A stretch of 64,000 bases of DNA, taken from IMG/VR virus record IMGVR_UViG_3300002461_000311, positions 1-64,000 of that record; one strand, written 5' to 3'. The position numbers and the translations under genes are program-made. Origin of the DNA: a virus. The notes under the pieces were generated by a model that did no database searches, was not told where the DNA came from, and saw only the letters and a program-made list of their open reading frames with translations. Shown in pieces: positions 3,794-50,310 of this stretch. The first letter of the stretch is position 1, and each line of letters begins with the position of its first letter.

Positions 3794-3987
3794 CCGCCGA
3801 TCACCATGCGGCGACGCGTCGGGTCGTTGCGCAGCAGGCTCTCGCGCTGCCGGGCAAGCACGTCGACCTTCGCATTGGCCGCGCGCTTGACCGCCCGCAG
3901 CTCAATGATTTGCTCGTTGATCTTGCGCACCTCATCCTCGGCCGCAACCAGGTCGGCCTCGATCTTTTCCAGACTGTTCATGCTCAC
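3790..3987 (-). CDS. small coiled-coil late protein (65 aa)
   Basis: Translationally coupled; heptad-like charged sequence. Confidence 0.6.
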   Translation of the reverse strand: MSMNSLEKIEADLVAAEDEVRKINEQIIELRAVKRAANAKVDVLARQRESLLRNDPTRRRMVIGG

Positions 3988-7404: not shown

Positions 7405-8946
7405 TCACGCCCTCCAATTCGTTGCTCGGCGGTGATTGATCTTGTTCGGCTTAGGCGGCAGCGCAGCGAAGCGCAGCGTCATGATTGCGTAGCGCGTGGC
7501 GCTCATCAGGTCGTCACGCACCTTGACGATCTTGCCGTCCTTGCGGTGGTAGAGCCTGAACTCCTCGAACCAGTCGTTGAGGTGGCTGAACACCTTCAGC
7601 CGGCCGCCGTTCATGCGCTCGAGCATCTCGGAGATGCCGGCCTCGACGCTGGTGAGGCTTGCCCGGGTGTTCGAGTCCTTGCGGTCACCTTCCTCGGGGA
7701 ACTTGGCCATCTCGGGCAGCATCTTGACGCCCAGGTCCCGGTACTGCGAGGCGAGCTTCGGGCCGGCGGCCGTGTCGTTGTTGCCGTCGTGCGGCCAGGC
7801 CATCGGTATCCACTCGCCGCGGCCCTTGATCGCAGCGGCATGCACAGCCGGCGGCTGCTCGCGAAGCCGGTGGACGTCGTACACGTAGACGATGTCGGCG
7901 TCCCGGTCCCAGGCGATCCAGGCCGCAGCAGTCGGGTGATCCCAACCAAAATCCATCGCGGCCAGTCGCGGCCAGTGCGGGGGCAGCGGGAAGGGCTCGC
8001 ACTTGATGATCGATTCTTCCACCGGAAAGATCCTTCCGCTTCCCAGCACCGGCACGCCCTTGGCTCGAGCCTCGCGCTCGTGGGCCGGGTAGCTCGCCGT
8101 GATCTGGGCGCGCTCCTCTGGGGTGTAGTGCTCTGCGTCGTCGATCGTCATCGAGACGACGTGACGGTCGACCTTGCCCGGATCGTCCTCAGCGGGCAGC
8201 AGGAACCGGCAGACCACGTCCGACATGCCCTTGAGCGGGGTGAACGTCATCGCCACCAGGCCGCGGGTCGTGTTCGTGCGCGTCAGCGTCTCGGTGTAGA
8301 CGCCCAGATCGTCGGGCTCCTCGTCGAGCCAGGCGAAGTCGAGCGTCTCGGCCTGGAACTTCTCCCGGCCCTGCTCGTACGCCTTGAAGGTGAGCTGCGA
8401 CTCGCCGGCCTGCACGTCACCGCCGCCGCCATGCTTCACGACCACGGTATCGATCGAGTCGGCCGCACCGCGCCGCATCGAGTGGTCCTTGATCGCATCC
8501 TTCGGGATCATCCCGGTACCGATCGCGTTCGGCCGGCCCATCAGGATGCGCTGCGCACCGTCGCGCGTCAGTTCAAACGAGACCGAGGCCGACCAGGCCA
8601 CGATCGCCTTGTGCCAGACCCGGCCTTCCCACCAGCTTGGGTACCGGCCGGTGAGATGCATCGCCATCTCGGCGCCGGCCGACAAGGTCTTGCCGACCTG
8701 GTTCGCCGCCATGAGCATGCGCTCACGGTACCGAGCGCCGGCCGCGTGGAACTCGCGCTGCTTGGCGTAGGGCCGATAGCCCTCCAGTCGACGCGCGGCG
8801 AGCGCTTGCTCGAGCTTAGTGCGTAGTGCGAGCAGGGTTGCTCGGCTGGACAGATCCAGCTTTCCCTGCGTCAACTGGTTGAGGTGCGCTAGCTGTGAGA
8901 GCTGCATTGAGTCCTTCAAGGAGCGACTTGGTCTCCTCATAGCCAA
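7405..8946 (-). CDS. terL: terminase large subunit (start codon uncertain; overlaps the terS 3' end)
   Basis: Walker-A-like MAANQVGKT; size and position between terS and portal. Confidence 0.88.
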   Translation of the reverse strand: MAMRRPSRSLKDSMQLSQLAHLNQLTQGKLDLSSRATLLALRTKLEQALAARRLEGYRPYAKQREFHAAGARYRERMLMAANQVGKTLSAGAEMAMHLTGRYPSWWEGRVWHKAIVAWSASVSFELTRDGAQRILMGRPNAIGTGMIPKDAIKDHSMRRGAADSIDTVVVKHGGGGDVQAGESQLTFKAYEQGREKFQAETLDFAWLDEEPDDLGVYTETLTRTNTTRGLVAMTFTPLKGMSDVVCRFLLPAEDDPGKVDRHVVSMTIDDAEHYTPEERAQITASYPAHEREARAKGVPVLGSGRIFPVEESIIKCEPFPLPPHWPRLAAMDFGWDHPTAAAWIAWDRDADIVYVYDVHRLREQPPAVHAAAIKGRGEWIPMAWPHDGNNDTAAGPKLASQYRDLGVKMLPEMAKFPEEGDRKDSNTRASLTSVEAGISEMLERMNGGRLKVFSHLNDWFEEFRLYHRKDGKIVKVRDDLMSATRYAIMTLRFAALPPKPNKINHRRATNWRA

Positions 8947-35456: not shown

Positions 35457-35753
35457 ATGAACGACGTGGAGATGGTGGAGTTTGAGCGCGCCGGGGAGCT
35501 TATCCGATGGGCTCGGATGCAGGCTGGGGCCAGCCAGAGGGAGGTGGCGCGCGCCATGGGTCTTGGCGACACACAGCAAAAGACGGTGTTTCACTGGGAG
35601 CGTGGAAGTCGCGAACCCCTGGCAAGCAACTTCATCGCCGCTTGCCAGGCGTGCGGGTTCAACGTGGTCCTGCTGCCGATGTCCGAGGAGGAGCTAGCGC
35701 GACTCGACGCTGCGCCAGTTGGCGCAGAAGGTAGCTTGCCGTCACAGGGTTAA
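35457..35753 (+). CDS. XRE-family HTH protein (98 aa)
   Basis: ASQREVARAMGLGDTQQKTVFHWERG helix-turn-helix; the 3' end overlaps the convergent gene. Confidence 0.6.
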   Translation: MNDVEMVEFERAGELIRWARMQAGASQREVARAMGLGDTQQKTVFHWERGSREPLASNFIAACQACGFNVVLLPMSEEELARLDAAPVGAEGSLPSQG

Positions 35754-36357
35754 TGCCGTGGGCGGCGGCGATGGCCTTATACGTCATTCCCATCGTCCGT
35801 TGCTTGGCCATTGCGAGAACGGCCTCCTCCGAGACCTTGTTTCTCGGCCTTGCTCCGGTCTTGAATGTGCCGCGATTCGTTTCCGCTTGTTGTTTCGGCG
35901 TGGCCCATCGACAGTTGCTTGGCTCGTAGTTGCCGTCTGGGTCTATCCGGTCTAGCGTGGTCCCGAGCGGCCTTTCGCCCATGTCGGCCAGGAAGGTTTC
36001 GAAGCTGGACCAGCTTGCGCAAACCGAGATACCGCGGCCGCCGTACCACGTCCACTGAGGGGCCTCTGGGTTCGAACACCGCCTGCGCATTTCTTTCCAG
36101 GATCTGTAGGTCCTGGTGTCCGACATTCCGTGAGTAGTTGATCGGCGAAGCAGGACGTCTCTTGATAGACAGCCGCAGGACTTGGTGTGCCCAGAGCGCA
36201 ACTTGAGCGAGTTTGCCTCGGTTGCCGCGCCGCAGTCGCAGCGGCACACCCATATCTTTCCTGTGCTGGACCGCCTGCTAGACGGAGAAACAACGATGAG
36301 CCGGCCAAAGCGCAGGCCAACCAAATCCAATGCCCTGGTACCATCGCGAGCAGCCAT
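35659..36357 (-). CDS. homing-endonuclease-like protein (Zn-ribbon + HNH_3-related core + HTH), copy 1
   Basis: CRCDCG...SCGC, YRSWKEMRRRCSNP...YGGRGISVC and LDRIDPDGNYEPSNCRWAT motifs; paralog at 43342..43935. Confidence 0.7.
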   Translation of the reverse strand: MAARDGTRALDLVGLRFGRLIVVSPSSRRSSTGKIWVCRCDCGAATEANSLKLRSGHTKSCGCLSRDVLLRRSTTHGMSDTRTYRSWKEMRRRCSNPEAPQWTWYGGRGISVCASWSSFETFLADMGERPLGTTLDRIDPDGNYEPSNCRWATPKQQAETNRGTFKTGARPRNKVSEEAVLAMAKQRTMGMTYKAIAAAHGINPVTASYLLRQLAQRRVALAPPRTSAAGPR

Positions 36358-38035: not shown

Positions 38036-41000
38036 CTACTGACCCATCCGCTCCGCGAACTCGCGCTCGATGTCGCGACGCCGGGTAACCTGGCGATCGA
38101 GCCGGGCGTTGAACTCCTCGTCGGAGATGCCGCGACGCTGGCGCTCGCGCCGAGCGGCGCCGATCTTCTGGGAGATCTCGCGCAGCGCCTCATCGCGCTG
38201 GCGGGCAAGGTTCACCCGGCCGGCATCCGCCGGGTAGGAGCCCAGCTTCACGCCAAAGGCCGAGGACAGCGCCTGCGGCAGGTTGCGCTCGCGCCCGAAG
38301 GCGTCGGTCTCGCCGGTACCGGCGGCCTGAATGGCCTTCCAAGAGTAGGTCTGGAAGAGCCCGCGTTGCATCGCGATCGAGTCGGCCGCGTAGCCCACCG
38401 GGTTGGGTAGCGGAAGGTTGGGCATGAGGAACTTGGCGATGTGGTCCATCACCTTCGTCGCGCCCTCGCCGAAGGTGTCGGTCTTGCCGACGATGTCCTT
38501 GCCGGTGAACTGGCTGCGGTTGGAGATCAGCTCGATCATGAGCGCCATCGGGCCGCCCACAGTCATCCACGGCGGCACCGGGATCGCGCTCTTCGAGCCG
38601 TTGAGGTCCATGATGTCGCCACCGGGAATCCAGCGACGCACGTCGAGGAAGACCGGGCTGTCGTTGGCGTCGTTCCAGGGCATGCGAAGGAGCCTCGGGA
38701 ACACCAGCAGCGTGCGCCCAGAGCGCTCGTCGGGCAGTAGCGCCCGCTCCTCCTCCTCGTCGCCGGCCGCGCCCAGCATGCCGTAGGCGAGCGCGTTGAG
38801 CGCATACCCCACGGACAGGTACTTCACCATCTTCCACGGGGTCTTGGTCATCGCGTCGATCAGGATCGGCACGATCCGGTAGGTGAACGCGATGAACGGG
38901 AGCGGGCCGCGGCGCAGGGCCTGAATCCAGGGGGCGTTGATGGAGTAGTCGAGGAACGCCTTGCGGGCGAGCTGCCCCGCCTCGCGGTCAGTCTTGCCGG
39001 CGGCGGTCTCCTTCATGAACTTCGCCAGGCGGAAGACGGCGTCCTCTTGCCGATAGAGGTCGATCATCGCCTTGAAGGGGGCAGCGCCCATCTTGCCCAG
39101 GCGCTTGGCCGTCGAGGTGCTCGCCAGGGCGACGAGCGCCTGCTTGAGGCTGCTGCCGCGCGCCAGGTGGATCGCCTGGATCAGGGACAGGTTCTGCGCC
39201 ACGGTGTCGCGCTCGGACTCCAACTGCTTGAGGATCGGCTCGATCACGTCCTGGCGCATCTCGATGGCAGCGAAGCTGCCGCCCTCGGACCCCGAGTCGT
39301 AGAAGCGCTCCATCATGGCCGAGGCAGCTTCGTCGCCGCGCTTGGCGTCGATGATCGTCACCAGGGCGGCGCGCAGATCCTCCGGCCCCAGGTTGGCCAG
39401 GTCGGCCATGACGACGTTGGCCATCACGTTGTTGGTGTGAACGGCCGGGCTGAGCGCCGTCTTGCTGATCTTCCAGGCGGTCAGAAGATCGTCCCACAGC
39501 CGCCACACGGCCGAGGCGCTGCGGAAGTTCACCGTCGCGCGAATGTCGTTCCAGATGTGCCCAGGAATGAATTGTCCAGCGAGGAGCCCGTACTTCTTGA
39601 GCTTCGTGCCGTAGGCGTTGGTCTTGGGAACTTCCACCCATTCGTTGTCAGCATAGGCGCGCAGGGTCGTCTTCGAGTCGGACGCCTCGGAGATCTTGCC
39701 GCCCGCCGCGATCACCTCCTCCTCGGTCGCCTTGCCGTACTCGGTGCCGACCCACTTGAGGAACTTCGCCGTCTCGATGTCCTGGATGGACGCGAGGGCG
39801 GTGCGTGCGAAGGCGTAGCGGATCTCCTCGATCTCGCCCAGGCGCTCGCGCTCGGGCTTGGAGAGATCGCGCCACATGCCGACGTTGCCATTCTTCTCGA
39901 ACCAGCGCGCCTCCCACACCCCGTCGTTGCGCCAGCCGGCGTGCTTCGCCGGGATGGGCTCGCCCTCTTTGACGTACGCCACGCGCTTGAGCTTGCCCAG
40001 CTCGCCTTCGGCGCCCGGGTCGCGAAGCTCCATGCGCACGTACTTGTCGCCCTTCTGAACACCAGGCAGCCGATCGCCGCTGATGTCGTGACGCAGGCCG
40101 CGTCCCCGATAGGTCTCTGCCCGGATGGCCTTCGCCTTGCGGTTGGCCGACACGAAGGCTGCGCCCTCGACCTCGTGCTTCTGGTAGGAGCGATGCAGGT
40201 ACGCCATCTTGTTGCGCCCGTACGACTCCTCGGAGAGCAGCCCCAGCTCGACAGCATCGCGCCCGAGCTGGTCGATCTGCTCCTTCATCGCCGCGAGAGT
40301 GGCGCGCGAGTCCGCCGGCAGGATCGCCATCATCTGGCGCTCCGCGTCGGTGTCGGGTTTCTCCTGCATCCAGAGGTAGGCGACGCGAGACTCGGCCATG
40401 CTCAGGCTGCCGATCTGGTCGATCATCGCCTTGGACTTGCGCAAGTGCGCATTGACGCGCCGCTCGCGCTCGTCTCGCTCGGAGAGGTAGGGCTCAGGCA
40501 GACCGTAGTCGGCAACGATGCCGTGCGCGATCTGCTGGCGGATGGCGCCGCCCTTGAACCAAGCGGCGGTCGCGCTCGAGACGCGATCGGCGAGCCGGCC
40601 CGTCACCTTGGCGACCGGGGCGAGCGGGAACCGCAGCGCGGCATCCGTTGCCCGGTTGATCGCCTGCGCTGCTTTGGTGACTGGGGCGACGGCCTTGGTC
40701 GCCATCCGCGTTGCGGCGAGCGCCGGCGCCCTCGATGCTTCGATGGCCTCGTCTACAACATCGAGCGCAACGCCAATCGGCTTGAGCGCGGCATCGAGTG
40801 TGCTCGCAACAGTCCGCGCGACTATGCCCGGCTGGTACTCTTGCTCGGCTCGAACGCCGCGATCTCCGCTCGCGACGTCAAGCCCTGGGCGCGCGCTGCG
40901 CGAATAGAGGATAGCTTGGTTCGCAGTGTCGCCTCGGGCCAACATGCCGGGAGAAAGGTGTTTTGAAGATACGCCTCGCTTTCCTCTAGCCCCGGAGGCC

Positions 41001-44000
41001 AAGAGCGATTGCGTAACAATTCCTCGTAGGATAGTTGCGTACCCGCTTCCCGAATCTCGCCCGGCGTCAGTGGCGGCAACGTCGTTTGCCCACTGCTGGA
41101 CTGTTCGCTTGTCGTCTCCACGAGGCACCCTCCACTCGAATTGTGAGGACTCGAAATTATAGCGGGCGGACTTTATTTCGTCTATGGATTGAAGGACATT
41201 CGCATAGGAATCGTAGATCAAAAGACCGAGATTGTAGCGGTCATCGTCGCCGTACTGATCCTCCACTTCTCGCCAGGCATGCTCGACCGATTGGTTCCAC
41301 GAGGGCCTCATCCATTTCGTCGTGCCAAGTCGCAGCGCCGCGCTCATCATCTGGTCGTTGCGACGGATGGCGGCAATCGGCGACACCGCCGCCGGGTCGC
41401 CGATAAAGGTCATCTCATTGTTGGCGGCATACTGCATGGCAACTTGATAGATGGCGCTACCAAGGCCGCTTTCCCGGATGTCGGATGTATCGACCCAGAC
41501 CGTTCGATCGGCGTCGCTTTGGCTAATCAGGCCGCGGATCACGCGGCCACGCCCATCCTTGCCGAGATTGATCGAGAAGGAGTCGTCGCTGAAGTCGTGG
41601 ATGTCGGAGCGGTGGACTAAAGAGCGGTCGCTTTTCTGAATACGCATCCCGAGCGCGATTTCGGTAATCGTCTTCGCGTTCGACCGCCCATAACGAAACG
41701 CTCTTGCGTCGTCCGAGATCTTCAGCCAGGCATCGGCCATGTCCATCAGCCGCCCGGGGGACGGGCGCCCCCCCTCTCCAGGACGCGCAGCACGAGAAAA
41801 CAGAGCCTTCAATGCAGAAGGCCCAGCTTTTTGCTGGGCCTTCGCGGATGCTGCCGGGTTTACTCCAACTCGTCTAGGCGGGGGAATCGGCCGGTCGCGA
41901 TGATTGCCTTTCCCTTCTTCACCTGCTCCGGCGTCAGTTCCGGAATGTCCCCGTTGCGAAACAGCGGGTGATCCGGCTTGAAAGGCCTCCCCTCCTCGAT
42001 CGCCTGCTTGACGAGCCTGTAGTCCTCTTCTCGGGGAAGATACTGCTGTATCCACCACCAAGGAACTGGATCGCCGAATTTTTCCGCGTAGTCCGCGTAA
42101 AGCCTGGCCAAGTCGGTTCCACGGAGTCTTTGAGATGTCGTCGATGAGTCGGAAGGCATGGGGCAACTCCTGCATCATGAGTTCGCGGTTCGTAGTGTAC
42201 GCCCTCACGAGTTGAGCGAAAAGCTCGCGTCGGATTTGGCCGGCCGTCATGGCCTCCCAGTATCCAGTGGCCAGCGGATATTTGAAAAGTTCACTCAACG
42301 GGCCGGTTTCGGCGTCCCAGACAAAAAACACCTCTCGGGCCACCTCGCCGCTCACCTCAATCTTGTCGCCGCTCTTCGTGAGCGCGAATGCGGGATGGAT
42401 CTCCGACAGAAAGCTGCCGTCCTTCTGCTTATCTAAAGCATGACCGAGTTCGTGCGCGATCGTTCCGATGAGGCGCTGCGAGTTGTTGATCGCACGCGGG
42501 ACGCCAGGTGGACCAGCCACATCTTCGTGGACGGTTATGCCATCAAATATGCTCCAGTACGCCCCGTCAATGCCGCCTCGACCCACCATGGCGTCGTCAT
42601 GCACACCCCAGATGATAACGGACTTGGCAGCCCTTTCAAGAATTGGCGAGGCGCGAAGCGTGTCATTGAGAGCTGACGCGATGTTCGCGCGCAGATCTGC
42701 GTGGATGGTACGGTCTAGTCGCCACCTCATCCAGGTCGGGAGCTTTTTATCGCGCCCAGGATCAATGCCGTCGTCCACCCCTACATGCAGGCGTCCATTG
42801 CGATCTTCGCCGACAAACTGAAACAACAACTGCTGGTCGCCGGCTGGGCGACTTAGATCGCCGCGTTGCAGCCACAGCTTGAATGCGTCTACGGTTGGGA
42901 AGGAGGCGATCGATCGAATCCGCTTCTCCCACCCGGCCTCGTATTCGTCTAGGTAGGCGGAGCGAGCCTCTTCCAGGGAGGGGAAGCCCATCATTACCTT
43001 CGCCTCGTCGTGCCTTCCGCTGGGGTTGTTTTGATCAACCACGAACACTGGGCCGTTGTAGTCAAGCGGCATGCCTGGCCTGAGAAAAACATCCACGGCA
43101 TCGCCGTCCTTACCGATGAAGCCGCCTCTGATGTAGCCGTAGTGCGACTTCATCGAGCGCGACCATCGCCTTCCGCCTGCGTCTACGCCAGAGCGGGTAG
43201 ACCCTGCCGGATTCTCGACCGAGATCGACAGTCCGCGCACCACTACCTGGCCGACCTTGTAATTGCCCTGCTTTTTCTGCGCCTCAGTAGGCTCCGGCAA
43301 ATCGTTGGCAGGGGACGTTGCGGCTTGGTGCGCGCCAACGTCTACCGTTGCGCCCGGAGATCCCCGCCTATCAGCGCCCGCTCTATCGGCAAGCCCCGAC
43401 GAATCCTCTCTCGAAGCGTTCGCACTTTCACGCCCAAGCGCCTTGCCCACTTCGGCAGCGTCATCGACTCCCCGTTTAGTGTCAGCATCGCGCTGTCTCG
43501 ACGATCCAGACGTTTCGTATCGAGTTCTCGCCCCGCCCTCGCCCGCCGGTAAAGAGTCTGCGCTGGTTTGCCCAACGCCCTTGCCGCTTCGGCCACCGTC
43601 AGTTGGTGGCCGCCCACCATTACTCGGTGACAATACCGACGATTGGCCGCCTGCTGCTGCCTGGTCGCCCATCGACAGTTGCCTGGCTCGTAGTTGCCGT
43701 CTGGGTCTATCCGATCCAACGTCAACCCCGGGCTCTGCTTTGGCCCGATGTCGCTGAGAAAACGCTCGAAGCTGTGCAGCCAAAGAGGACTGATCGTCAC
43801 GCCCCGCGCCCCGTAGTATTTGAAGTCTGGGCTCTTCGGGTTGAGGCAGCGACGCTTCATGTGCTGCCACGCTTGGTACTCTGCTTTGTACTGGCTTCTG
43901 GGTCCTGGGCTCTTTGCCATCGCTTGTCCTACCATTGGCGCGACCGCGCGACCTTGCTTGGACCTCGAGAGCGGCGTATTTGTTCTCGGTCGGCTGGGGC

Positions 44001-47000
44001 TTATCGTTCTTGGGGGAGGTGGCCGCCTCGTGGGCGGCAGCGTCTACGCTTGCTCGGGCTTCTTGGGCGCCTTCTTCTGCTCGGCGGCCTTCGGCTTCGG
44101 CAAAGCGCCGAAAAAGGTCTGCCCAACGACCCAGGACTGCTGGTAGATTGGGTCGTCCTCCTTCGCGTAAGGAATCCCGAAGAAGTCGTCCTTCTGGGTC
44201 TGCTTGCCAGTCATGGTACGGGTATCCTGTTTCGGCGCCGACAGCGACATAGGACTTCACTTTAGCAGGAAGGTTTCCGCCCTGCACGAGCTTCGTCACC
44301 CCCGCCGCGAACTCCTGGTCGCTCATGACGAACGGCATGCCGTCGTCACCCCTAAAGTTCATGAGCACGATCTCGCGATCGTTCAGGCGGGTGAGCCCCA
44401 TGCCATCGTTCACGTCTCGGCGAACAGCAGCATAAACAGCGCGCAGCTCAGCGTCACCAACATTCGCATCGAAGCTGATCTTCACGCCCTTGGTCGCGCC
44501 GGGGTCGCGCGCAAGCGCGGGGTCGGCGCGGAAGAACGGCACCGCATCCTGACGAAAGACGTACATCCATCCGCGCGCCACGCGCTCCACCACATCGCGG
44601 TCGGCGCGCACCGTGGCAACGGCGTTCGGCGCCACTTGGTTCTCGTAGGCCCCCGCCCCGCCCACAACCTCGAATTGCGAGGGCCTCAGACCGAATGCCC
44701 TGAAATAGACGTCCGGACCACCCTTGCCGAAGACGGCCTTGAGGGCGTTGTCCTGGTAGCGCTGGAGTTCTTCGAGGCTCAGGTTTGCCACCGCCTGGCC
44801 AATCCGTAGCTGCGTCGAGGGGCGCGTCTCTGCCGTGATGGTGGCGCCGGGGCGGCGCCCACGAGACTTCAGGATGTTGCGCACGCTCGCGTCAAAGGCG
44901 CCCGAGTTGCCGAGCGAAGACTTCACGTGCGTCGGCTCGAACGGCATCAGGTGCAGCGTGCCGGGATAGACGCCTTGCATGCCTATGCCGAAGGGGCCGC
45001 GAGCGCGCGGGCCGAACGCCATGTCGGCGTCCATGATGATGCCGTCGTAACCGAGCGCCTCGACCGCCTGGCGAATGATTTCCCCAGGCGACACCAGTTC
45101 GCCGTTGCTGTCATACGCCTCGGAGAGTCCGCTGCGCACCAGGGCCGCGGCGTCGTACGCGCTCTTGCCCTCCGGATCGCTCAGTAGATCAGTAAGCGCC
45201 TCGGAGGCATCGGCATCGTAGGTGGATGCCACGTCGCGGATGGCGTTCGCGAAATCGACGAGCGTGCCGCCCTCGCTGACGATGTCCTCGCCGTCCTCGC
45301 TATACTCAATCTCAGAGGTGAGCTGCAAGCCGCTCGGGCGCATGTCGAACGGGTTCTTCATCTTCACCCAGAGGGGCATGATCAACCCCTTGGAGTCGCC
45401 AGCCACCGCCGCCCTCGCGGATTGCGCGACGGCCTTCTCGAAGAGCAGGTCGCGCACGGTCTCTTTCTGCGCATCGGTCAGCTCGCCATAGTCGAGATCC
45501 GCAAGCGCAACCCCCAGCTCCTCTGCCGCGCGGCGCGCGTCCTCCGGGTTCTTGTCGAGGTGATCGGCCATCGCTTCGTCGAGCGCGAAACTGTCGTCGC
45601 GCCATGCATCGGCGAGCTGCTCTTTGGAGCGCTCGATGCGACCGGTCAGGTCCGGCCCCTCGCCCGCGTAGTTGATGCTCGCGTCGTCGCGCGAGGTCGT
45701 CACATAGAAGCCGTTGCCCAGCCAGCCTTCGGCGGTGCCGGCCCGGGGCGCCGTGTCGATCTCCTGAATGTTCGAGTGCGTCGTGCCGTGGAAGGCTTCA
45801 AACACTGCTGGCCCGCCCTCGTAGTCCTCCGTCTGCTCGGCGCGAACCACGGGCATGCCCTCGGACCAGCGCTTGAAGGCATCGGTGTCGATCTGATCGG
45901 GCGGCGGGACGAACTGCTCCTGGCGAGCAGCGGCACCGCGGGACTTGAGGGCCTCCATGTCGCGCTTCACGCCCGAGGCGGCCGGCGTCGGGCTCGCCGA
46001 CTCGGACTTGACCCAGTCGGCCGTAGCCTGAGCGAGCGCCTTGCGGGCCGCGTCGAGATCCTTGATGTACTGAGCGGACTCCAGGCCGGGCCGGCCGAGA
46101 CCGAGCTTCGAGCGGATCACATCCAGGGTCAGCATCACCGCGTCGCGGATCTTCATCACCATGGAGCGATCGAGCCCCTTCAGCACCTGGCGCCAGAACT
46201 CGGGCTCGTTCATCCGATCGCCGAGCATGTCGGCCATCAGCTCCTCGGTGACCAGATCCTCGGAGGCGCGCGCCTTCGGGTTGTCGGTCTCCTCCTGGAT
46301 GGCGGCGTCGAGCCACGCGCGATAGCGCGCGGTGTCGCGCATCAACGGCGCCATCCGGGCGACCAGCGTGCGGTAGACGGCGCCGTTGGAGCGGCGCAGC
46401 GAGTGCAACAACTCGTGGCCAATGATGGCCAGGTGGGAGCGGGTCGCGTCCGCGTTGATGTAGATCGTCGACGGGTCGCTCGGGATGATGAATCCCTGGG
46501 CCTGGTCTTCGGGCTTTACGGGCTTGGCGTACCGGAAGAAGACGACGCGTCGCTTGAAGATGTCTCGGGCGACTCGCAGTCCTGCTGCAACATCAGCGGA
46601 AGCAGGCACCTCAGCCTCGGTCGCGAGACGGGCGAGCCCTCCGGTGGCGGCGGTGACGCGCACCCCTTCGTTGGGTCGGGGTGCGTCGCCCCGGCGCCAC
46701 ATGGGCGGGGTGTCGTCGGTACCGGTGGCTTCGGTGTCATTGAGCGTTCCCTCTCGCAGGGCCTTGCGATACTCGGTCGCGCGGCGGGTGAGGCGCCACG
46801 CGCCGCTCGGCGTAGGATAGCCGAAGCCCAGCTCGATCGCGCGGCGGCGCTCGGACTGGTTGAGCCGCTCGCCCTTGAACAGGCGCTCGGCCCAGTTCTG
46901 ATCGTTGGCGCTCGGGGCCTGCTCGCGCAGAGCAGTGCGCCGCGCCAGCTCGCCGGCCGCGCGCTCTTGCGCTTGCTTGGCGCCTTTCCTGGCAACGAAT

Positions 47001-48793
47001 CGCAGGGTGTTGTCGTTCAGATCGCGCGGGTCGTTGCCCAGCACCTTGCGCTGAGCGTCCTCCAGATCTCGGTCGGCCTGCTCCTTGGGCGTCTTGCGGA
47101 ACTGGTTTGGATTGATCCCGGCCTGCTCGAGCGCGAGCCCCAGCGGCGAGGTGAGCGGCGGGGCACCCATATCCACGCCCGCCGACACGGCATCGGCGAC
47201 CGCCACCGAGAGATCGCGCTGGCGCTGCGACTCCTGGGCGAGCATCTCCAGCTCACGATCCCGCTGCGCTTCGCGCTCGCGTTCCGCAAGGTCAAGCGCT
47301 GCCCGGGCCTGGTCGGACACGCGCGGCGGACGCGGGGCGATCGTCTGCCCCGGGGTCGCGCTCGGCGCCGGAGCGGCCATGCCGGTCGCCTCCGCAAGCG
47401 CCTGGCGCGCGCCGGCAGCGTCGTAGGGGATGGCATCCGCCGCGGACGCCGGCTGCGCCTGCGGCTCTGCTGGCGGGCTTGCCGGGGAGAAATCGACCCC
47501 TTCGTCGCCCGGCTCGCGCCAGGTCGTCGTGGCCTCGATCTCGCGGCGCTCACGCTCCTGGTTGGCGCGATCCTGCGCTTCGATGCGCGCCATCTCGGCC
47601 TGCTCGCGATCGTACGGGATGGTTTCCAGGCCGGAGGCGCCGGCGCCAGTCGTGGTCCCGGGCTCTTCGGTGCCGAGGACATCACCGGCCGGAATGGGCG
47701 CGTTCTCGGGCGCGGGCGCTTCTGCGCTTCGACCGAAGATCGCGTTCTGTCCGGCGCCCTGCACCGAGCCGATGGCGAGGCCGCCCAGGCCCTCGTTGAG
47801 GGCGCCCTGGGTGAGCGGACGCTCCGGGTCGACCGCGCGCATGGCGACGTTCTCGCCGACCTTGGAGAGGTAGCTTTGCGGGAACTCCTCGAGCAGGCCC
47901 TCGCTCACAGCGCCCGTGGCCGCGCGGCGCGCGAGCCCGCCGGCCTGGCCGGCAATGGCCTTGGCCAGCGCCCGGTCACCCAGGCCGCCGAACACGCCCG
48001 TCGCCACGCCCGCCAGCACCATCGCCCGGCTCTTCACGTCCCGGATGATCTGGTCTTTTGCCGCCTCGTAGGTGAGCCCCTCGAACATCAGCGACTTGAT
48101 GACCTCGGAGTCGCGAAGCTGGGCGTCCGGAATGCGGCGGATCTCCTCCTCGACGTTCTGCGCCGCCCCGCCGGCCGCGAACGCCGCCTCGGTGCTGCGG
48201 CCCGCCATCATGGCCGTGCGTGCAGCCGCCTTCCCGGCGGCCACCTTGTCGCCAGTCTTCTCGAGCGCAGTCTTGTAGGCCGAGCGCGCCAACACCTGGG
48301 CCGGCGCCATCGACAAGATCTGCTCGGGCAGCGACTCTGCGATGCCCCGCGTGTAGGTGCGCCAGTCGGACCAGGCATCGCCGAACGTGCCGGCCTCCTC
48401 ATCCCACCATTGCTTGCGCCCTGCCGCCTGGAATCCGGGCGAGTAGCTCTGCTCGAGCCCCTCGGCCGCCCCTTTCAGGGCCTCCTTGGTACGGTCGCCA
48501 CCCATCGCCGGGCGCACGATCCTGGCTGCGCGTTCGATCATCCCCAGGCCGGGGATGTGCTCGACCACCGGGCGGATGACCTCGTCGAGCGAAGCGGGCG
48601 CCCGCAGCGCGCCACGGGCAAGGCCCACGCCCACGTCTTTGACCGTCTCGATGGCCGAATCGAGGAAGGACGACTCTTTCCCCTCGTCGAAGGACATCGG
48701 CGCCGGAGCCGGAGCCGACCAGTTGCGCTCCCAGGGCTTGCGCTCCTCGGATGCGCCCGTCTGCCCAGACCAGTTACGCTCCCATGGTTTCAC
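38036..48793 (-). CDS. giant multidomain virion (polyvalent/ejection-type) protein, ~3585 aa
   Basis: Uninterrupted ORF; the likely start is GTG at 48793 (GTGA coupling, GGGAGG RBS), and the track start is 48808. Contains two HExxH zincin motifs (HELLH, HELGH), an ART-like FHGT..GNGFYVT segment, a pyrophosphatase-like GKDGDAVDVF segment and a TM-containing C-terminal ~900 aa. Frame anomalies at 40.8-44.3 kb are described in the findings. Confidence 0.75.
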   Translation of the reverse strand: MKPWERNWSGQTGASEERKPWERNWSAPAPAPMSFDEGKESSFLDSAIETVKDVGVGLARGALRAPASLDEVIRPVVEHIPGLGMIERAARIVRPAMGGDRTKEALKGAAEGLEQSYSPGFQAAGRKQWWDEEAGTFGDAWSDWRTYTRGIAESLPEQILSMAPAQVLARSAYKTALEKTGDKVAAGKAAARTAMMAGRSTEAAFAAGGAAQNVEEEIRRIPDAQLRDSEVIKSLMFEGLTYEAAKDQIIRDVKSRAMVLAGVATGVFGGLGDRALAKAIAGQAGGLARRAATGAVSEGLLEEFPQSYLSKVGENVAMRAVDPERPLTQGALNEGLGGLAIGSVQGAGQNAIFGRSAEAPAPENAPIPAGDVLGTEEPGTTTGAGASGLETIPYDREQAEMARIEAQDRANQERERREIEATTTWREPGDEGVDFSPASPPAEPQAQPASAADAIPYDAAGARQALAEATGMAAPAPSATPGQTIAPRPPRVSDQARAALDLAEREREAQRDRELEMLAQESQRQRDLSVAVADAVSAGVDMGAPPLTSPLGLALEQAGINPNQFRKTPKEQADRDLEDAQRKVLGNDPRDLNDNTLRFVARKGAKQAQERAAGELARRTALREQAPSANDQNWAERLFKGERLNQSERRRAIELGFGYPTPSGAWRLTRRATEYRKALREGTLNDTEATGTDDTPPMWRRGDAPRPNEGVRVTAATGGLARLATEAEVPASADVAAGLRVARDIFKRRVVFFRYAKPVKPEDQAQGFIIPSDPSTIYINADATRSHLAIIGHELLHSLRRSNGAVYRTLVARMAPLMRDTARYRAWLDAAIQEETDNPKARASEDLVTEELMADMLGDRMNEPEFWRQVLKGLDRSMVMKIRDAVMLTLDVIRSKLGLGRPGLESAQYIKDLDAARKALAQATADWVKSESASPTPAASGVKRDMEALKSRGAAARQEQFVPPPDQIDTDAFKRWSEGMPVVRAEQTEDYEGGPAVFEAFHGTTHSNIQEIDTAPRAGTAEGWLGNGFYVTTSRDDASINYAGEGPDLTGRIERSKEQLADAWRDDSFALDEAMADHLDKNPEDARRAAEELGVALADLDYGELTDAQKETVRDLLFEKAVAQSARAAVAGDSKGLIMPLWVKMKNPFDMRPSGLQLTSEIEYSEDGEDIVSEGGTLVDFANAIRDVASTYDADASEALTDLLSDPEGKSAYDAAALVRSGLSEAYDSNGELVSPGEIIRQAVEALGYDGIIMDADMAFGPRARGPFGIGMQGVYPGTLHLMPFEPTHVKSSLGNSGAFDASVRNILKSRGRRPGATITAETRPSTQLRIGQAVANLSLEELQRYQDNALKAVFGKGGPDVYFRAFGLRPSQFEVVGGAGAYENQVAPNAVATVRADRDVVERVARGWMYVFRQDAVPFFRADPALARDPGATKGVKISFDANVGDAELRAVYAAVRRDVNDGMGLTRLNDREIVLMNFRGDDGMPFVMSDQEFAAGVTKLVQGGNLPAKVKSYVAVGAETGYPYHDWQADPEGRLLRDSLREGGRPNLPAVLGRWADLFRRFAEAEGRRAEEGAQEARASVDAAAHEAATSPKNDKPQPTENKYAALEVQARSRGRANGRTSDGKEPRTQKPVQSRVPSVAAHEASLPQPEEPRLQILRGAGRDDQSSLAAQLRAFSQRHRAKAEPGVDVGSDRPRRQLRARQLSMGDQAAAGGQSSVLSPSNGGRPPTDGGRSGKGVGQTSADSLPAGEGGARTRYETSGSSRQRDADTKRGVDDAAEVGKALGRESANASREDSSGLADRAGADRRGSPGATVDVGAHQAATSPANDLPEPTEAQKKQGNYKVGQVVVRGLSISVENPAGSTRSGVDAGGRRWSRSMKSHYGYIRGGFIGKDGDAVDVFLRPGMPLDYNGPVFVVDQNNPSGRHDEAKVMMGFPSLEEARSAYLDEYEAGWEKRIRSIASFPTVDAFKLWLQRGDLSRPAGDQQLLFQFVGEDRNGRLHVGVDDGIDPGRDKKLPTWMRWRLDRTIHADLRANIASALNDTLRASPILERAAKSVIIWGVHDDAMVGRGGIDGAYWSIFDGITVHEDVAGPPGVPRAINNSQRLIGTIAHELGHALDKQKDGSFLSEIHPAFALTKSGDKIEVSGEVAREVFFVWDAETGPLSELFKYPLATGYWEAMTAGQIRRELFAQLVRAYTTNRELMMQELPHAFRLIDDISKTPWNRLGQALRGLRGKIRRSSSLVVDTAVSSPRRGLQARQAGDRGGEAFQAGSPAVSQRGHSGTDAGAGEEGKGNHRDRPIPPPRRVGVNPAASAKAQQKAGPSALKALFSRAARPGEGGRPSPGRLMDMADAWLKISDDARAFRYGRSNAKTITEIALGMRIQKSDRSLVHRSDIHDFSDDSFSINLGKDGRGRVIRGLISQSDADRTVWVDTSDIRESGLGSAIYQVAMQYAANNEMTFIGDPAAVSPIAAIRRNDQMMSAALRLGTTKWMRPSWNQSVEHAWREVEDQYGDDDRYNLGLLIYDSYANVLQSIDEIKSARYNFESSQFEWRVPRGDDKRTVQQWANDVAATDAGRDSGSGYATILRGIVTQSLLASGARGKRGVSSKHLSPGMLARGDTANQAILYSRSARPGLDVASGDRGVRAEQEYQPGIVARTVASTLDAALKPIGVALDVVDEAIEASRAPALAATRMATKAVAPVTKAAQAINRATDAALRFPLAPVAKVTGRLADRVSSATAAWFKGGAIRQQIAHGIVADYGLPEPYLSERDERERRVNAHLRKSKAMIDQIGSLSMAESRVAYLWMQEKPDTDAERQMMAILPADSRATLAAMKEQIDQLGRDAVELGLLSEESYGRNKMAYLHRSYQKHEVEGAAFVSANRKAKAIRAETYRGRGLRHDISGDRLPGVQKGDKYVRMELRDPGAEGELGKLKRVAYVKEGEPIPAKHAGWRNDGVWEARWFEKNGNVGMWRDLSKPERERLGEIEEIRYAFARTALASIQDIETAKFLKWVGTEYGKATEEEVIAAGGKISEASDSKTTLRAYADNEWVEVPKTNAYGTKLKKYGLLAGQFIPGHIWNDIRATVNFRSASAVWRLWDDLLTAWKISKTALSPAVHTNNVMANVVMADLANLGPEDLRAALVTIIDAKRGDEAASAMMERFYDSGSEGGSFAAIEMRQDVIEPILKQLESERDTVAQNLSLIQAIHLARGSSLKQALVALASTSTAKRLGKMGAAPFKAMIDLYRQEDAVFRLAKFMKETAAGKTDREAGQLARKAFLDYSINAPWIQALRRGPLPFIAFTYRIVPILIDAMTKTPWKMVKYLSVGYALNALAYGMLGAAGDEEEERALLPDERSGRTLLVFPRLLRMPWNDANDSPVFLDVRRWIPGGDIMDLNGSKSAIPVPPWMTVGGPMALMIELISNRSQFTGKDIVGKTDTFGEGATKVMDHIAKFLMPNLPLPNPVGYAADSIAMQRGLFQTYSWKAIQAAGTGETDAFGRERNLPQALSSAFGVKLGSYPADAGRVNLARQRDEALREISQKIGAARRERQRRGISDEEFNARLDRQVTRRRDIEREFAERMGQ
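40822..41121 (-). CDS. +1-frame ORF nested in the giant gene (99 codons, GTG); weak coding evidence
   Basis: Protein-like composition (LTPGEIREAGTQLSYEELLRN...), but third-position GC does not discriminate it from frame 0. Confidence 0.2.
   Translation of the reverse strand: METTSEQSSSGQTTLPPLTPGEIREAGTQLSYEELLRNRSWPPGLEESEAYLQNTFLPACWPEATLRTKLSSIRAARAQGLTSRAEIAAFEPSKSTSRA
41815..41841 (-). terminator. 11-bp-stem hairpin GAAGGCCCAGC-N5-GCTGGGCCTTC inside the giant ORF, 19 nt after the +1-frame stop at 41860
   Basis: Direct reading; no clean U-tract. Confidence 0.4.
41860..42159 (-). CDS. +1-frame coding segment nested in the giant gene (99 codons; ...DLARLYADYAEKFGDPVPWWWIQQYLPREEDY...)
   Basis: Third-position GC is ~76% in the +1 frame from codon 15 onward, against my rough estimate of ~40% in frame 0. 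Balanced Trp/Lys/Glu composition; ends TAA then a hairpin. Confidence 0.5.
   Translation of the reverse strand: MPSDSSTTSQRLRGTDLARLYADYAEKFGDPVPWWWIQQYLPREEDYRLVKQAIEEGRPFKPDHPLFRNGDIPELTPEQVKKGKAIIATGRFPRLDELE
43280..44046 (-). mobile_element. endonuclease-gene cassette bounded by ~62-bp imperfect direct repeats (44046-43985 and 43344-43283)
   Basis: Both repeats start TAGACG and are 44/62 identical by hand alignment. In frame 0 both encode VDxxAHxAATSPxNDxPxPTE. Confidence 0.45.
43342..43935 (-). CDS. homing-endonuclease-like protein (HNH_3-related core + 2 HTH), copy 2, nested in the +1 frame of the giant gene
   Basis: About 50% aa identity to copy 1 across YxxWxxMxxRCxNP...YGxRG...LDRIDPDGNYEPxNCRWAT. 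AGGA RBS before the second ATG (43920). Confidence 0.72.
   Translation of the reverse strand: MVGQAMAKSPGPRSQYKAEYQAWQHMKRRCLNPKSPDFKYYGARGVTISPLWLHSFERFLSDIGPKQSPGLTLDRIDPDGNYEPGNCRWATRQQQAANRRYCHRVMVGGHQLTVAEAARALGKPAQTLYRRARAGRELDTKRLDRRDSAMLTLNGESMTLPKWARRLGVKVRTLRERIRRGLPIERALIGGDLRAQR
44044..44250 (-). CDS. +1-frame coding segment nested in the giant gene (68 codons; ...KQTQKDDFFGIPYAKEDDPIYQQSWVVGQTFFGALPKPKAAEQKKAPKKPEQA)
   Basis: Third-position GC is 57/68 (84%) in the +1 frame versus 28/68 (41%) in frame 0 by hand count. Ends TAG. Confidence 0.45.
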   Translation of the reverse strand: MSLSAPKQDTRTMTGKQTQKDDFFGIPYAKEDDPIYQQSWVVGQTFFGALPKPKAAEQKKAPKKPEQA

Positions 48794-50310
48794 CGTGCCG
48801 CCTCCCACGAGCTGGGCGAGTTCGGGTCGCCACCCTTGAATCGGAAGCCATCGACGACGCCACCCACCACCGGGCCGCCGGCTGACCTGGGATTGCGATT
48901 GCCGATCGGCTCCAGGCCGGGGGCGCCGCGGATCTGCTTGGTCTCGGCCCCCAATGCGGCGGTGACGCGGGCCGCTTCGGCCTTGCTCAGCTTGGTAGCC
49001 GGCAGGAGGCGACGCACATCGTCAGCGCTCCATCCGCCCTCTTCCACCATGCGGCGGACGAACGCCGCCAGCGCCTTGTTCTTCGTCTCATCGCGATAGT
49101 TGCCTTTCTCTGACGCGCTCAGCGCCGAGCGCAGCGTCTCATCGAGCGACACGGCCCGGTCGCGGAACTCGTAGTAGACGGTCTCGAACGCGGTCTCGGG
49201 GTTGGAACCGCTGCGGATGCGCTCGCCCAGCGCGCTCTTCATCGCCGGCAGCAAGGTCATCATGCCGTTGACGTTGAACTTCGCATCCTCCTTGGCCTGC
49301 TCACCCTCGAGCAGGCGCCGGTACCCGAGCGCGCCCTTCTCGATCAGATCGTTGACGTCCTTGGGCTTGAGCCCGCCGCCGCTGGTTTCGCGGCGAAGGT
49401 TCAGGGTGGCGTTCCGGTAGCTCTGGATCGCGTCGATCTCTGCCTTCTTGAGTTTCTCGTTTGCCTGGTTGTGCCGCACCGTCTCTGCCTGGGCCGCCTC
49501 CCGGGTCGCAACCTCGCGCTTCTTCAGCCCGACGTTCGGGTCCTTGTCCCACTCCCAGAGCTTCTGGGCGCGGGCGCGCGATTGCTGGTAGTCGATCTCC
49601 ATCGACTTGGTCGGGTCAGACATCATGGCGATGTGACTCTCCAGCTCCTGCTCGGTCATCGTCTTCGGGATGCGCTGCCCGTTGTACTCGAAGACCATGG
49701 CGTAGGCGCGCTCGCCCTTCTCGTTGGTCGTCGGCTTGAACGATGCCGGGTCGATCTTGCCGCCGTCGCCCCAGAGGTTGTTGTAGACATCGACCACGCC
49801 GGACGCGTCGCCCGTGGTCTTGAGCCGAGCGTAGGCATCGCCCGCCGTGCGCTTGCGCAGATCCGCGCGCATGGCCGCAGCGCGCTGGAGATGCTGGTCA
49901 GCCAGATCGATCCGGCCGCGCGCCGCGTAGGCATTCGCCATGGCCTCGGCCGCCGCCGCAGCCGCGCCCTCGCGACCGAACCGGCTCGGTGTACCGGGGC
50001 GCGCCGCCTGCTCGAGCGCCTCCTCGGGCGGGCGCTCGAAGAGATCGCCATCATCCCCAGCCGATGGGCCGGGCATCGCGGGCGCCGCCGGCCCGCCCAT
50101 GGCGCGCTCGAACGCAGTTCGACCCGCTTCGCGCGCCTCGTTGTTCAGGCGCTCGATGTCGTCGGCCGTGCGCTTCTCGCGCTCGGAGCGATCCCGCTCG
50201 AACTCGAAGCGTTGCTTGTCCCGATCGTCGCGCTCCTGCTTCGAGCGACGATCGACCGCCGTCTGATACCCAGCAATGCCTCCAGAGAGGAACGCCCCGA
50301 GTCGACTCAT
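48790..50310 (-). CDS. internal virion / ejection-associated protein (506 aa)
   Basis: Charged coiled-coil-rich protein immediately upstream of the giant gene and coupled to it. Confidence 0.7.
   Translation of the reverse strand: MSRLGAFLSGGIAGYQTAVDRRSKQERDDRDKQRFEFERDRSEREKRTADDIERLNNEAREAGRTAFERAMGGPAAPAMPGPSAGDDGDLFERPPEEALEQAARPGTPSRFGREGAAAAAAEAMANAYAARGRIDLADQHLQRAAAMRADLRKRTAGDAYARLKTTGDASGVVDVYNNLWGDGGKIDPASFKPTTNEKGERAYAMVFEYNGQRIPKTMTEQELESHIAMMSDPTKSMEIDYQQSRARAQKLWEWDKDPNVGLKKREVATREAAQAETVRHNQANEKLKKAEIDAIQSYRNATLNLRRETSGGGLKPKDVNDLIEKGALGYRRLLEGEQAKEDAKFNVNGMMTLLPAMKSALGERIRSGSNPETAFETVYYEFRDRAVSLDETLRSALSASEKGNYRDETKNKALAAFVRRMVEEGGWSADDVRRLLPATKLSKAEAARVTAALGAETKQIRGAPGLEPIGNRNPRSAGGPVVGGVVDGFRFKGGDPNSPSSWEAAR

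Follow-up and report, generated by a model that had tools for sequence, protein, structure and literature searches.

Endonuclease genes hidden inside other genes

Arsenault, Gosselin and Gogarten (2025) described the ShiLan domain, in which 'hidden' HNH endonuclease genes are inserted out of frame in the DNA methylase genes of actinophages (PMC11855218). In ShiLan-type insertions the host ORF is uninterrupted, and the insert has at its 5' end a short repeat of its 3' flank (PMC11855218). Gosselin et al. reported inteins whose homing endonuclease occupies a separate reading frame; in the published examples the enzyme is endonuclease VII-like and encoded in frame 3 (bioRxiv 10.1101/2025.01.02.630785). 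In the bypass cassette of phage T4 mobA and gene 60, the ribosome reportedly hops over 50 nt (bioRxiv 10.1101/2022.08.31.505936).

The window analysed here, a stretch of 64,000 nt from IMG/VR virus record IMGVR_UViG_3300002461_000311, contains an endonuclease-like gene nested in the ORF of a giant virion-type polyvalent protein. As in ShiLan, an endonuclease ORF of ~190–200 aa lies wholly within the host ORF in another frame, its stop codon stands at the extreme end of the insert, the insertion preserves phase and leaves the host frame without stops, there is no intron or intein signature, and the predicted in-frame product lacks structure. In both, the host-frame reading of the insert opens with a repeat of the residues found after the insertion site, 11 aa long in ShiLan and 21 aa long in the window. 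The two differ in host gene (the ShiLan host being a methylase), in genome (65% GC and not an actinophage), in insertion place (an inter-module linker rather than the inside of a catalytic domain), in endonuclease frame (+1, i.e. frame 2, rather than frame 3) and in start codon (ATG behind a clear Shine–Dalgarno (SD) sequence, against the leaderless GTG proposed for ShiLan). The endonuclease family also differs, having a D-R core plus two helix-turn-helix (HTH) units and no zinc fingers. Because it matches the ShiLan-type hidden out-of-frame HNH elements (PMC11855218), the window element is to be regarded as a member of a known, very young class, and not as a new kind of element.

The inteins of Gosselin et al. 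share with the window a free-standing-type endonuclease gene nested out of frame while the host frame stays open. Their read-through peptide leaves with the intein by protein splicing, whereas the window has no splicing domain and a putative nuclease of another family. The T4 cassette resembles the window in combining a mobile endonuclease cassette in a coding region with a device that preserves synthesis of the host protein. Unlike in gene 60, nothing in the window suggests a bypass of 640 nt, which the open frame would make needless.

Phage genes can also be split by homing endonuclease genes (HEGs), the host ORF then being broken into two cistrons whose products reassemble as subunits. The free-standing HEG mobE reportedly splits nrdA of Aeromonas phage Aeh1, as Gibb and Edgell are said to have found in 2007. 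There, as in the window, an HNH-type gene has entered a conserved gene where an insertion is tolerated, and one related locus, L083, resembles the split state; the host ORF is broken in nrdA but continuous in the window. Rickettsia palindromic elements are selfish DNA tolerated in host proteins as an in-phase, stop-free, translated extra peptide. Unlike the window cassette, they are short (~100–150 bp), non-coding and without a gene of their own.

The host gene and the nested endonuclease-like gene

The host gene is a very large ORF joining unrelated effector modules, including polyvalent-specific domains, as in polyvalent proteins in the sense of Iyer et al. (2017); ART-PolyVal, InPase and LPD37 were all detected with Pfam models. 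Gene callers place its start five codons further in, giving 3585 aa, and the ORF was also found in four public assemblies. It shows mosaic homology to the polyvalent ORF of locus L082, and its distant phage matches are annotated as DarB-like. The closest DNA matches of the genome are phages of Achromobacter, Agrobacterium and Sinorhizobium. GC3 along the giant ORF is 0.79–0.93 over aa 1–1500, 0.53–0.73 over aa 1801–2700, the block right of the cassette, and 0.89–0.95 thereafter. Two more +1 ORFs, 44044–44250 and 41860–42159, are nested in the giant gene, which stays open across both.

Table 1. Coordinates of the nested gene, its paralog and the host-gene features around the cassette.
Feature	Position	Strand	Details
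Giant polyvalent-protein ORF (host gene)	38036..48808	(-)	3590 codons from GTG 48808
Upstream copy of InPase lead-in motif	43985..44047	(-)	encodes VDAAAHEAATSPKNDKPQPTE, aa 1588-1608; cut off after PTE
Host-frame read-through of cassette	43346..43984	(-)	213 codons, aa 1609-1821, no stop
Cassette 5' leader	43921..43984	(-)	AGGA Shine-Dalgarno 43930-43927 and ATG 43935; host-frame reading NKYAALEVQARSRGRANGRTSDG
Nested HNH-family (by annotation) endonuclease-like gene	43342..43920	(-)	192 aa + stop; +1 frame vs host
Downstream copy of InPase lead-in motif	43283..43345	(-)	encodes VDVGAHQAATSPANDLPEPTE, aa 1822-1842
InPase (PF18823) module of giant protein	42869..43285	(-)	aa 1842-1980; Pfam; AF2 pLDDT 90-98
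Free-standing paralog of endonuclease-like gene	35659..36357	(-)	232 aa

The nested ORF lies entirely inside the giant ORF, on the same strand and in its +1 frame, which codon-position GC and LLR over the gene both indicate to be coding. A longer version (43342..43935, 197 aa) begins at an alternative upstream ATG. The first-pass annotation had placed the probable start at the second ATG, 43920, and AGGA indeed stands six bases upstream of it. The paralogy that it drew to the free-standing gene was borne out by 47% identity over 104 aa (E 3e-32), confined to the N-terminal core, the HTH parts at the C-terminus being dissimilar. The free-standing paralog has three stops in the frame that stays stop-free in the nested copy.

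That annotation had also called the gene homing-endonuclease-like and had allowed for its lacking homologs; database homologs number 6215 at E<=1e-10. The nuclease assignment is one of annotation: the gene belongs to a very large phage family annotated as HNH endonucleases, with strong matches to the PHROG 'HNH endonuclease' families phrog_3377 (E 3.5e-52) and phrog_374 (E 1.5e-37). The product consists of an N-terminal core domain followed by two HTH units. Its AlphaFold2 (AF2) model has a mean pLDDT of 91.7, and its structural neighbours in BFVD carry the labels HNH, HTH homing endonuclease or AP2. No Pfam HNH model matched at E<=1 and no NCBIfam model matched, and a PDB fold search gave nothing at E<=0.001, the best nuclease being PacI (E = 3).

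The AF2 model has strands at residues 67–70 and 82–85 followed by a helix at 87–92, and the catalytic His of the canonical (D/H)-H is absent, the family having a near-invariant D69 and an invariant R70 there, a placement that is our own reading of the alignment. N81 is invariant in the family and N93 near-invariant. The product is best termed a putative homing nuclease, 'homing endonuclease' being an annotation-level label.

The flanking repeat is the lead-in motif of the InPase module

An imperfect direct repeat had been noted around the cassette, with 44 of 62 positions matched by hand. Its copies, 43283–43351 and 43985–44053, are identical at 49 of 69 nt (71%) and lie 702 nt apart (3x234); compared in frame, 45 of 63 nt agree. 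The pair has a z of 8.2, and the next-best 69-nt match in the window, on both strands, reaches 36/69. The TAGACG strings that the first-pass annotation saw at both stops arise where the GTA GAC codons for V-D in the motif are read in +1, and so the endonuclease ORF and the preceding +1 ORF (44044..44250) both end on motif sequence; the nested-gene TAG (43344–43342) falls within GTAGAC of the downstream copy. The frame-0 peptides that it read from the two copies are those of Table 1, alike at 15 of 21 residues, and the second does continue directly into AQKKQGNYKVGQ, the start of InPase. Codon usage in the upstream copy points to the host frame.

The lead-in motif occurs once, contiguous with GNYxKGH, in >15 InPase homologs, and a second copy was found in none of the InPase homologs compared. 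Homologs with a single contiguous motif and InPase represent distant 'empty sites'. The search for an empty site that had been proposed succeeded at this distance, but no close relative of the phage was found in any collection searched, and hence no close cassette-free relative, true empty site or presence/absence polymorphism. At other loci the motif acts as a module junction: it occurs without InPase in L082, and L002 and L083 differ at it.

The two copies are near saturation at synonymous sites (pS 0.61) while pN is 0.18 (dN/dS ~0.16), and each keeps the consensus peptide with ~2 departures. A fresh target-site duplication was rejected on these grounds. The saturated synonymous sites and the low dN/dS make separate lineages the most likely source of the copies and favour their joining by endonuclease-associated recombination. 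All the features noted in the first pass were found at the positions given for them, and the footprint proposed there, an endonuclease-gene insertion at a module boundary between copies of a host motif with the host ORF left open, is supported. It is strengthened by the single motif of the homologs, by the similar L001, L002 and L083 and by the in-phase, stop-free host frame, but it is not that of a fresh target-site duplication.

The host frame across the cassette and in related loci

The host ORF had been described as left open, and the cassette plus one 21-codon motif copy adds exactly 702 nt, or 234 codons, in phase and stop-free. The read-through is rich in R, G, S, A and Q, poor in hydrophobic residues (12.7% versus 27%) and predicted to be disordered; its pLDDT is 30–45, against 90–98 in the adjacent InPase, a low value that stems partly from the absence of aligned homologs. 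No host-frame stop was observed in the cassette, against 5.0 expected from synonymous shuffles (P 0.0008–0.002). The empirical chance of such an open stretch is ~5–10% in this genome and 0–2% in genes with similarly low GC3; free-standing homologs have 1.5–14.9 stops per 100 codons in the corresponding frame. Open -1 frames of ~200 codons are not rare at 65% GC, and taken by itself the stop-free host frame of the window is only moderately significant.

Other polyvalent genes, at L001, L002 and L083, have related endonuclease genes at the corresponding place. Those of L001 and L002 are likewise nested in +1 relative to the host, immediately upstream of InPase modules; both have SD sites, and both host ORFs remain open, although gene callers break that of L001 into two. 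The right junction of L002 is identical, with TAG inside GTAGAT of VDAAAHEAATSP. L083 is a close relative of L002 in which the upstream module lies in a different frame, which shows that the host frame need not be continuous.

Inteins, too, contain out-of-frame nested members of this endonuclease family: those of L028, L050 and L068 (48–50% GC), where Hint splicing blocks, a terminal HN and a C/S/T +1 residue surround the nested genes (...HNC), and those of P0166 and P0169. L028, L050 and L068 have 0 host-frame stops against 9–13 expected (P<2e-4). At ~50% GC, the open host frame of these three loci cannot be chance.

Alternative explanations

Were the cassette a self-splicing intron of group I (or II) that houses the endonuclease ORF, the giant mRNA would be spliced and the repeat would reflect pairing of exon and guide sequence. 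Group I introns often carry phage HNH endonuclease genes (PMC3943268), and similarity between insert start and 3' flank was taken as an intron hint for ShiLan (PMC11855218). The intron is nevertheless very improbable. A search of Rfam, including group I/II introns, gave no match at E<=10 on either strand of 42500–44800; outside the ORF the cassette has just ~64 nt on the 5' side and none on the 3' side, too short for a ribozyme core; and the endonuclease stop would fall inside an exon. Furthermore, an intron needs no in-phase, stop-free host frame, yet such a frame recurs in six loci. Removal of the insert as an intein or by proteolysis, to leave a mature protein without it, has a parallel in the inteins of L028, L050, L068 and P0169 and in those already reported (bioRxiv 10.1101/2025.01.02.630785). 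It is exceedingly improbable here, since the giant protein has no Hint/intein Pfam match and the insert borders, ...PTE/NKY and ...GAT/VDV, have neither a Cys, Ser or Thr +1 residue nor an HN junction; proteolytic trimming may still take place.

The giant ORF could instead comprise two genes with a free-standing endonuclease gene between them, its open in-phase frame a chance product of GC content and its downstream half started independently. The frequency of open 200-codon alternative frames given above, the split version in L083 and the similar splitting of L001 by gene callers would all fit. This is quite unlikely, however, since frame 0 has no stop that would keep ribosomes from running on into InPase in any case, and the product of phase (1/3) and openness (0.001–0.1) is small. 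The giant ORF is also open across two additional +1-coded stretches, no SD-equipped start codon stands ahead of the downstream motif, and L001, L002 and the low-GC intein loci show equal continuity. Alternatively, the repeat may be an old in-situ tandem duplication, made by slippage or unequal crossover independently of the endonuclease, whose gene landed between the copies later. Copies just 71% identical and a motif that is a module junction elsewhere agree with this, but a redundant copy should decay and both have kept the consensus peptide under constraint. As no homolog has two copies and ShiLan-type elements have an equivalent insert/flank repeat, such a duplication is unlikely.

Proposed origin and expression

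The explanation that we consider probable is that an endonuclease gene has been captured in the giant gene, where it is read through, internally initiated and not spliced. A gene of free-standing type would have been captured inside the polyvalent coding sequence, in the linker that immediately precedes InPase. Judging from the reading frames, ribosomes most likely read straight through the cassette and on into InPase. Structure prediction suggests that read-through would insert a disordered, low-complexity stretch of ~213 residues and a second motif copy, ~234 residues in all, between two modules. For the endonuclease, ribosomes would initiate internally at ATG 43920, which follows AGGA, in the +1 frame, and its translation would end on the TAG within the GTA GAC codons of the motif. 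Neither RNA nor protein splicing would take part. Selection would keep the ORF continuous, as the polyvalent protein presumably needs its modules physically linked for joint delivery.

The upstream motif copy would be the recipient gene's own. Another polyvalent gene would have donated the downstream copy, together with the endonuclease gene and the InPase-to-LPD37 block, which differs in composition. The least certain steps concern the recombination, which may have been homologous at the InPase end and illegitimate at the opposite end, and was plausibly begun by a cut in motif-coding DNA.

Implications for polyvalent protein genes

The first description of selfish genes that live within another gene and use neither RNA nor protein splicing dates from 2025, and the host gene is new here. 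It is conceivable, though doubtful, that a stop-free -1 frame has arisen in the family as a general, splicing-free strategy for dwelling in ORFs, that its preferred target is DNA encoding the InPase lead-in or junction motif, and that inter-module linkers accept any stop-free sequence while modules must stay covalently linked. On the same tentative reading, the giant gene would tolerate the cassette and the +1 genes 44044–44250 and 41860–42159 because its linkers are permissive and its modules linked. If this is true, polyvalent protein genes would be driven to exchange modules by the cuts of the endonuclease; the polyvalent gene would be a habitat for overprinted genes, and the endonuclease an engine of mosaicism.

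A gene nested out of frame in a giant polyvalent-protein gene

The window has a GC content of 65% and a phage-like character, and its terminase is related to that of Achromobacter phage CF418P1 in a megablast search of a phage collection. Pfam domains ART-PolyVal, InPase (aa 1842-1980) and LPD37 occur together in its giant ORF, which is therefore described as encoding a polyvalent protein. The distant DNA matches of this ORF are annotated DarB-like antirestriction genes of Agrobacterium and Sinorhizobium phages. An assembly artefact is rejected, since contigs of 53-65 kb in the NCBI (LNFM01), JGI, ENA and Logan assemblies all encode the 3,585-aa product. Among four cluster variants of the giant protein, mutual differences amount to only 1-2 residues (one of them the start residue), and none falls within the cassette.

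Features of the giant gene and its surroundings in the window
Feature	Position	Strand	Frame relative to giant ORF	Remarks
Giant polyvalent-protein ORF	38036-48808	minus		3,590 codons
Cassette	43346-43984			read-through, giant aa 1609-1821
Nested endonuclease-like ORF	43342-43935	minus	+1	197 codons
Upstream motif copy	43985-44047			21 codons
Downstream motif copy	43283-43345			21 codons
Direct repeat	43283-43351 and 43985-44053			
Second +1-frame coding stretch	44044-44278	minus	+1	giant aa ~1511-1585
ORF within the second stretch	44044-44250	minus	+1	68 aa, MSLSAPKQDTRTMTGK...; strong native-like codon usage
Third nested ORF	41860-42159	minus	+1	99 aa, MPSDSSTTSQRLRGTDLARLYADYAEKFGDPVPWWWIQQYLPREEDY...; giant aa ~2217-2316; AGGAG 7 nt upstream
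Free-standing paralog	35659-36357			

The nested ORF represents a genuine gene. PHROG 'HNH endonuclease' families match it (phrog_3377, E 3.5e-52), 1,137 phage records contain homologs by tblastn, and a large protein database has 6,215 homologs at E<=1e-10, the best of which is ~60% identical over the full length. An AlphaFold2 model built with 80 homologs as input has a mean pLDDT of 91.7, and the viral proteins closest to it in structure bear the annotations HNH, HTH homing endonuclease or AP2. The second ATG, at 43920, lies six bases downstream of an AGGA, and the gene would be translated by internal initiation; no convincing promoter or terminator internal to the locus was found on the coding strand. 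The first-pass annotation had called this gene a paralog of the free-standing gene, which holds for the N-terminal core (47% identity over 104 aa, E 3e-32), the part for which similarity is reported.

Searches of the nested product against Pfam HNH, NCBIfam and the PDB (by sequence and by fold) gave no significant match, and the family carries a near-invariant D69 and an invariant R70 at the place of the catalytic (D/H)-H of HNH enzymes. The name 'endonuclease' thus stays at the level of annotation, and nuclease activity is predicted. No Pfam or PDB match covers the core domain of the family.

Between 43948 and 43400, codon-position GC and codon-usage log-likelihood both point to the +1 frame instead of the host frame, which they favour again at the downstream motif. 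Translated in the host frame, the cassette is rich in R, G, S, A and Q, with 12.7% hydrophobic and aromatic residues compared with 27% in the rest of the protein. The modelled insert has a pLDDT of 30-45, against 90-98 in the adjacent InPase domain, although its lack of aligned homologs itself depresses confidence. Host-frame translation presumably continues through the insert.

Openness of the host frame

The two repeat starts are 702 nt apart (3x234), and no stop interrupts the host frame across the 192 endonuclease codons. When the synonymous codons of the nested gene are shuffled, 5.0 stops are expected, with P(0) = 0.0008-0.002. An empirical control, which is more conservative than the shuffle, found that 8-10% of 198-214-codon windows in other genes of the window are open in the same relative frame, a fraction that drops to 0-2% where gene GC3 is below 0.78. 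In free-standing homologs from loci at 62-80% GC, this relative frame contains on average 1.5 stops per 100 codons, and the paralog has three stops in the frame that the nested gene keeps open. For the window alone, the probability of host-frame openness is roughly 0.001-0.1, multiplied by 1/3 for phase. Statistical and comparative evidence together support a host ORF that has been kept open.

The flanking repeat and the InPase lead-in motif

The top direct repeat returned by a repeat search flanks the nested gene and matches at 49/69 nt; no other 69-nt match in the window exceeds 36/69, and the real pair has z = 8.2. The nested ORF and imperfect flanking repeat noted in the first-pass annotation are confirmed. 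Within the repeat, the two motif copies match in frame at 45/63 nt and encode VDAAAHEAATSPKNDKPQPTE and VDVGAHQAATSPANDLPEPTE, a peptide found at just these two places in the window. The two TAGACG strings that had been remarked on are present, and correspond to the motif V-D codons GTA GAC seen in the +1 frame.

In more than 15 InPase-bearing homologs the motif occurs once, as (I/V)DxAAHEAATSPxNxLPEPTEAQKxAGNYxKGH, contiguous with the InPase domain. These homologs are distant 'empty sites', and they are what the proposed BLAST search for an uninterrupted site yielded, no close relative having been found. A HEG-less site, uninterrupted near PTE|AQK, would read ...GCAAGCGTAGACGCTGCCGCCCACGAGGCGGCCACCTCCCCCAAGAACGATAAGCCCCAGCCGACCGAG joined to GCGCAGAAAAAGCAGGGCAATTACAAGGTC.... 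Viral and genome contigs contained neither a close relative nor a true empty site when queried with the reconstructed HEG-less junction, and a domain-X alignment against genome and viral contigs and a megablast search of the phage collection likewise gave no close relative. A flank-only query of metagenome contigs recovered the distant locus L082 alone, and a junction protein search matched the InPase part only. Searched against a library of 1.84 billion representatives, the read-through peptide found the window's own protein and two weak hosts; a read-through profile built from six sequences found two proteins only. Protein databases under-sample the out-of-frame nested arrangement.

Recurrence in other loci

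In four of 80 IMG/VR loci with homologs of the nested gene, the endonuclease gene is spanned, at the same frame offset, by an ORF exceeding 900 codons. Locus L001 contains the second-closest homolog, P0047 (55% identity), inside an ORF of 1,898 codons or more that carries InPase, RadC and LPD38; this host ORF is open across the P0047 gene in the same +1 relation. The P0047 gene has a strong AAGGAG site, and InPase starts ~30 codons past its stop. In L002 (64% GC), whose polyvalent ORF carries InPase and LPD38, the endonuclease gene again ends on a TAG that belongs to the motif, the one within GTAGAT of VDAAAHEAATSP. The proposal that an endonuclease gene had inserted at a module boundary and left the host ORF open is supported by this recurrence in L001 and L002, together with the phase-preserving spacing and the stop-free host frame.

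A comparison of L083 (3141-5435) with L002 (3076-5051) showed 72-84% nt identity. In L083, the endonuclease gene adjoins the InPase/LPD38 ORF, and the upstream module is in another frame, that gene ending at 3938. L002 reads through the endonuclease gene, which abuts the motif, whereas L083 has ~410 extra nt (~135 codons) between gene and motif. By its sequence, L083 appears to be a split version of the arrangement.

The endonuclease family is also nested in the +1 frame inside inteins with ...HNC junctions in L028 (2326-3057), L050 (3800-4420) and L068 (3968-4543), at 48-50% GC, where the hosts are an SNF2 helicase, a protein without a Pfam match and a terminase, respectively. These host frames have no stops against 9-13 expected (P<2e-4); at 48-50% GC, the equivalent frame of free-standing homologs contains 8.8 stops per 100 codons. 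Members of the family are likewise nested +1 in inteins in P0166 and P0169, the latter having two such inteins in a 1192-aa protein.

Alternative explanations and origin of the repeat

Splicing of the cassette as an intron is rejected, as a search of Rfam at E<=10 over 42500-44800 returned nothing relevant and the cassette has only ~64 nt outside the endonuclease ORF, too little room for a ribozyme. An intein is likewise rejected, there being no Hint or intein matches and no junction residues. Tandem duplication of the endonuclease 3' end together with the motif was also rejected: the endonuclease gene shows no similarity with the +1 ORF that lies 5' of the first copy, and repetition at the DNA level ends at GTAGAC. 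The motif copies differ at 9.5/15.5 synonymous and 8.5/47.5 non-synonymous sites (pS 0.61, pN 0.18, dN/dS ~0.16), and each departs from the family consensus at ~2 positions. A redundant copy made in place would be expected to decay; retention of both copies therefore fits two lineages, in each of which the motif may once have been the sole functional one.

GC3 in the giant ORF is 0.79-0.93 to aa 1500, 0.53-0.73 at aa 1801-2700 and 0.89-0.95 beyond. The low-GC3 block extends from InPase to LPD37 (window 40700-43400), with the endonuclease cassette at its left edge, which suggests a mosaic origin of the giant ORF and is consistent with joint arrival of the cassette and the block. Elsewhere, the motif also behaves as a module junction. 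In L082 (~7699-7743, ORF aa 821-835), a distant polyvalent ORF, VDQAAHEAATSPRND leads into a short linker rich in R and then LPD37, without InPase, so the 'InPase lead-in' can be a bare module junction, and L002 and L083 differ by their ~410 nt exactly there.

It is proposed that the locus arose by recombination with a donor polyvalent gene, homologous at the InPase side and illegitimate at the other. The recipient motif, cut after PTE, would thereby have been placed upstream of a donor leader-endonuclease-motif segment, and only phase-preserving, stop-free recombinants would have survived. An endonuclease cut in motif DNA is a plausible start of this presumed history.

Further +1-frame stretches

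A second +1-frame coding stretch lies directly upstream of the cassette. Host-frame GC3 collapses to 0.38 over the 68-aa ORF within it, which terminates at the TAG contained in the GTAGAC of the upstream motif copy. Read in the host frame, the stretch has true homology to the L082 polyvalent ORF (43% identity), and the +1 ORF has a counterpart there at 6560-6946. Divergence from L082 by codon position is flat across the stretch, at 0.29/0.31/0.29 compared with 0.46/0.35/0.62 upstream, a dual-coding signature. This +1 ORF has no Pfam, PHROG or phage match.

For the third nested ORF, codon usage fits the +1 frame better between 42118 and 41908. At this position, between a protease-like region and LPD37, the host frame is R/G/S/A-rich, and the ORF has no Pfam, PHROG or phage tblastn match.

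Relation to known elements and significance

[quoted passage not shown] Read in frame, the insert is predicted to yield an unstructured product, and the first 11 residues of the insert repeat those past the insertion site (PMC11855218). Inteins with an endonuclease in a separate frame have also been described (bioRxiv 10.1101/2025.01.02.630785). The present cassette has the ShiLan arrangement of an out-of-frame ORF in an open host frame, but occurs in another phage group, with another endonuclease-like family and a giant multi-module virion-type host protein. It belongs to this recently described class, and what is new is the host gene and the endonuclease-like family. A literature search found no paper tying polyvalent proteins to nested endonuclease genes.

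Public databases list the giant ORF of the window in full and omit the nested gene, and in L001 (286-5699) the endonuclease gene is annotated while the host ORF is cut short, with its start placed after that gene. Gene callers either swallow the nested gene or split the host, and annotation therefore systematically misses such elements.

Survival of HEGs in essential genes has been thought to be limited to introns, inteins or gene splitting. An out-of-frame HEG, with the host frame left open and the extra peptide tolerated, is a third route, described in 2025 in actinophage methylases. To this route, the window adds quantitative evidence of stop-codon depletion and recurrence at one conserved junction motif.
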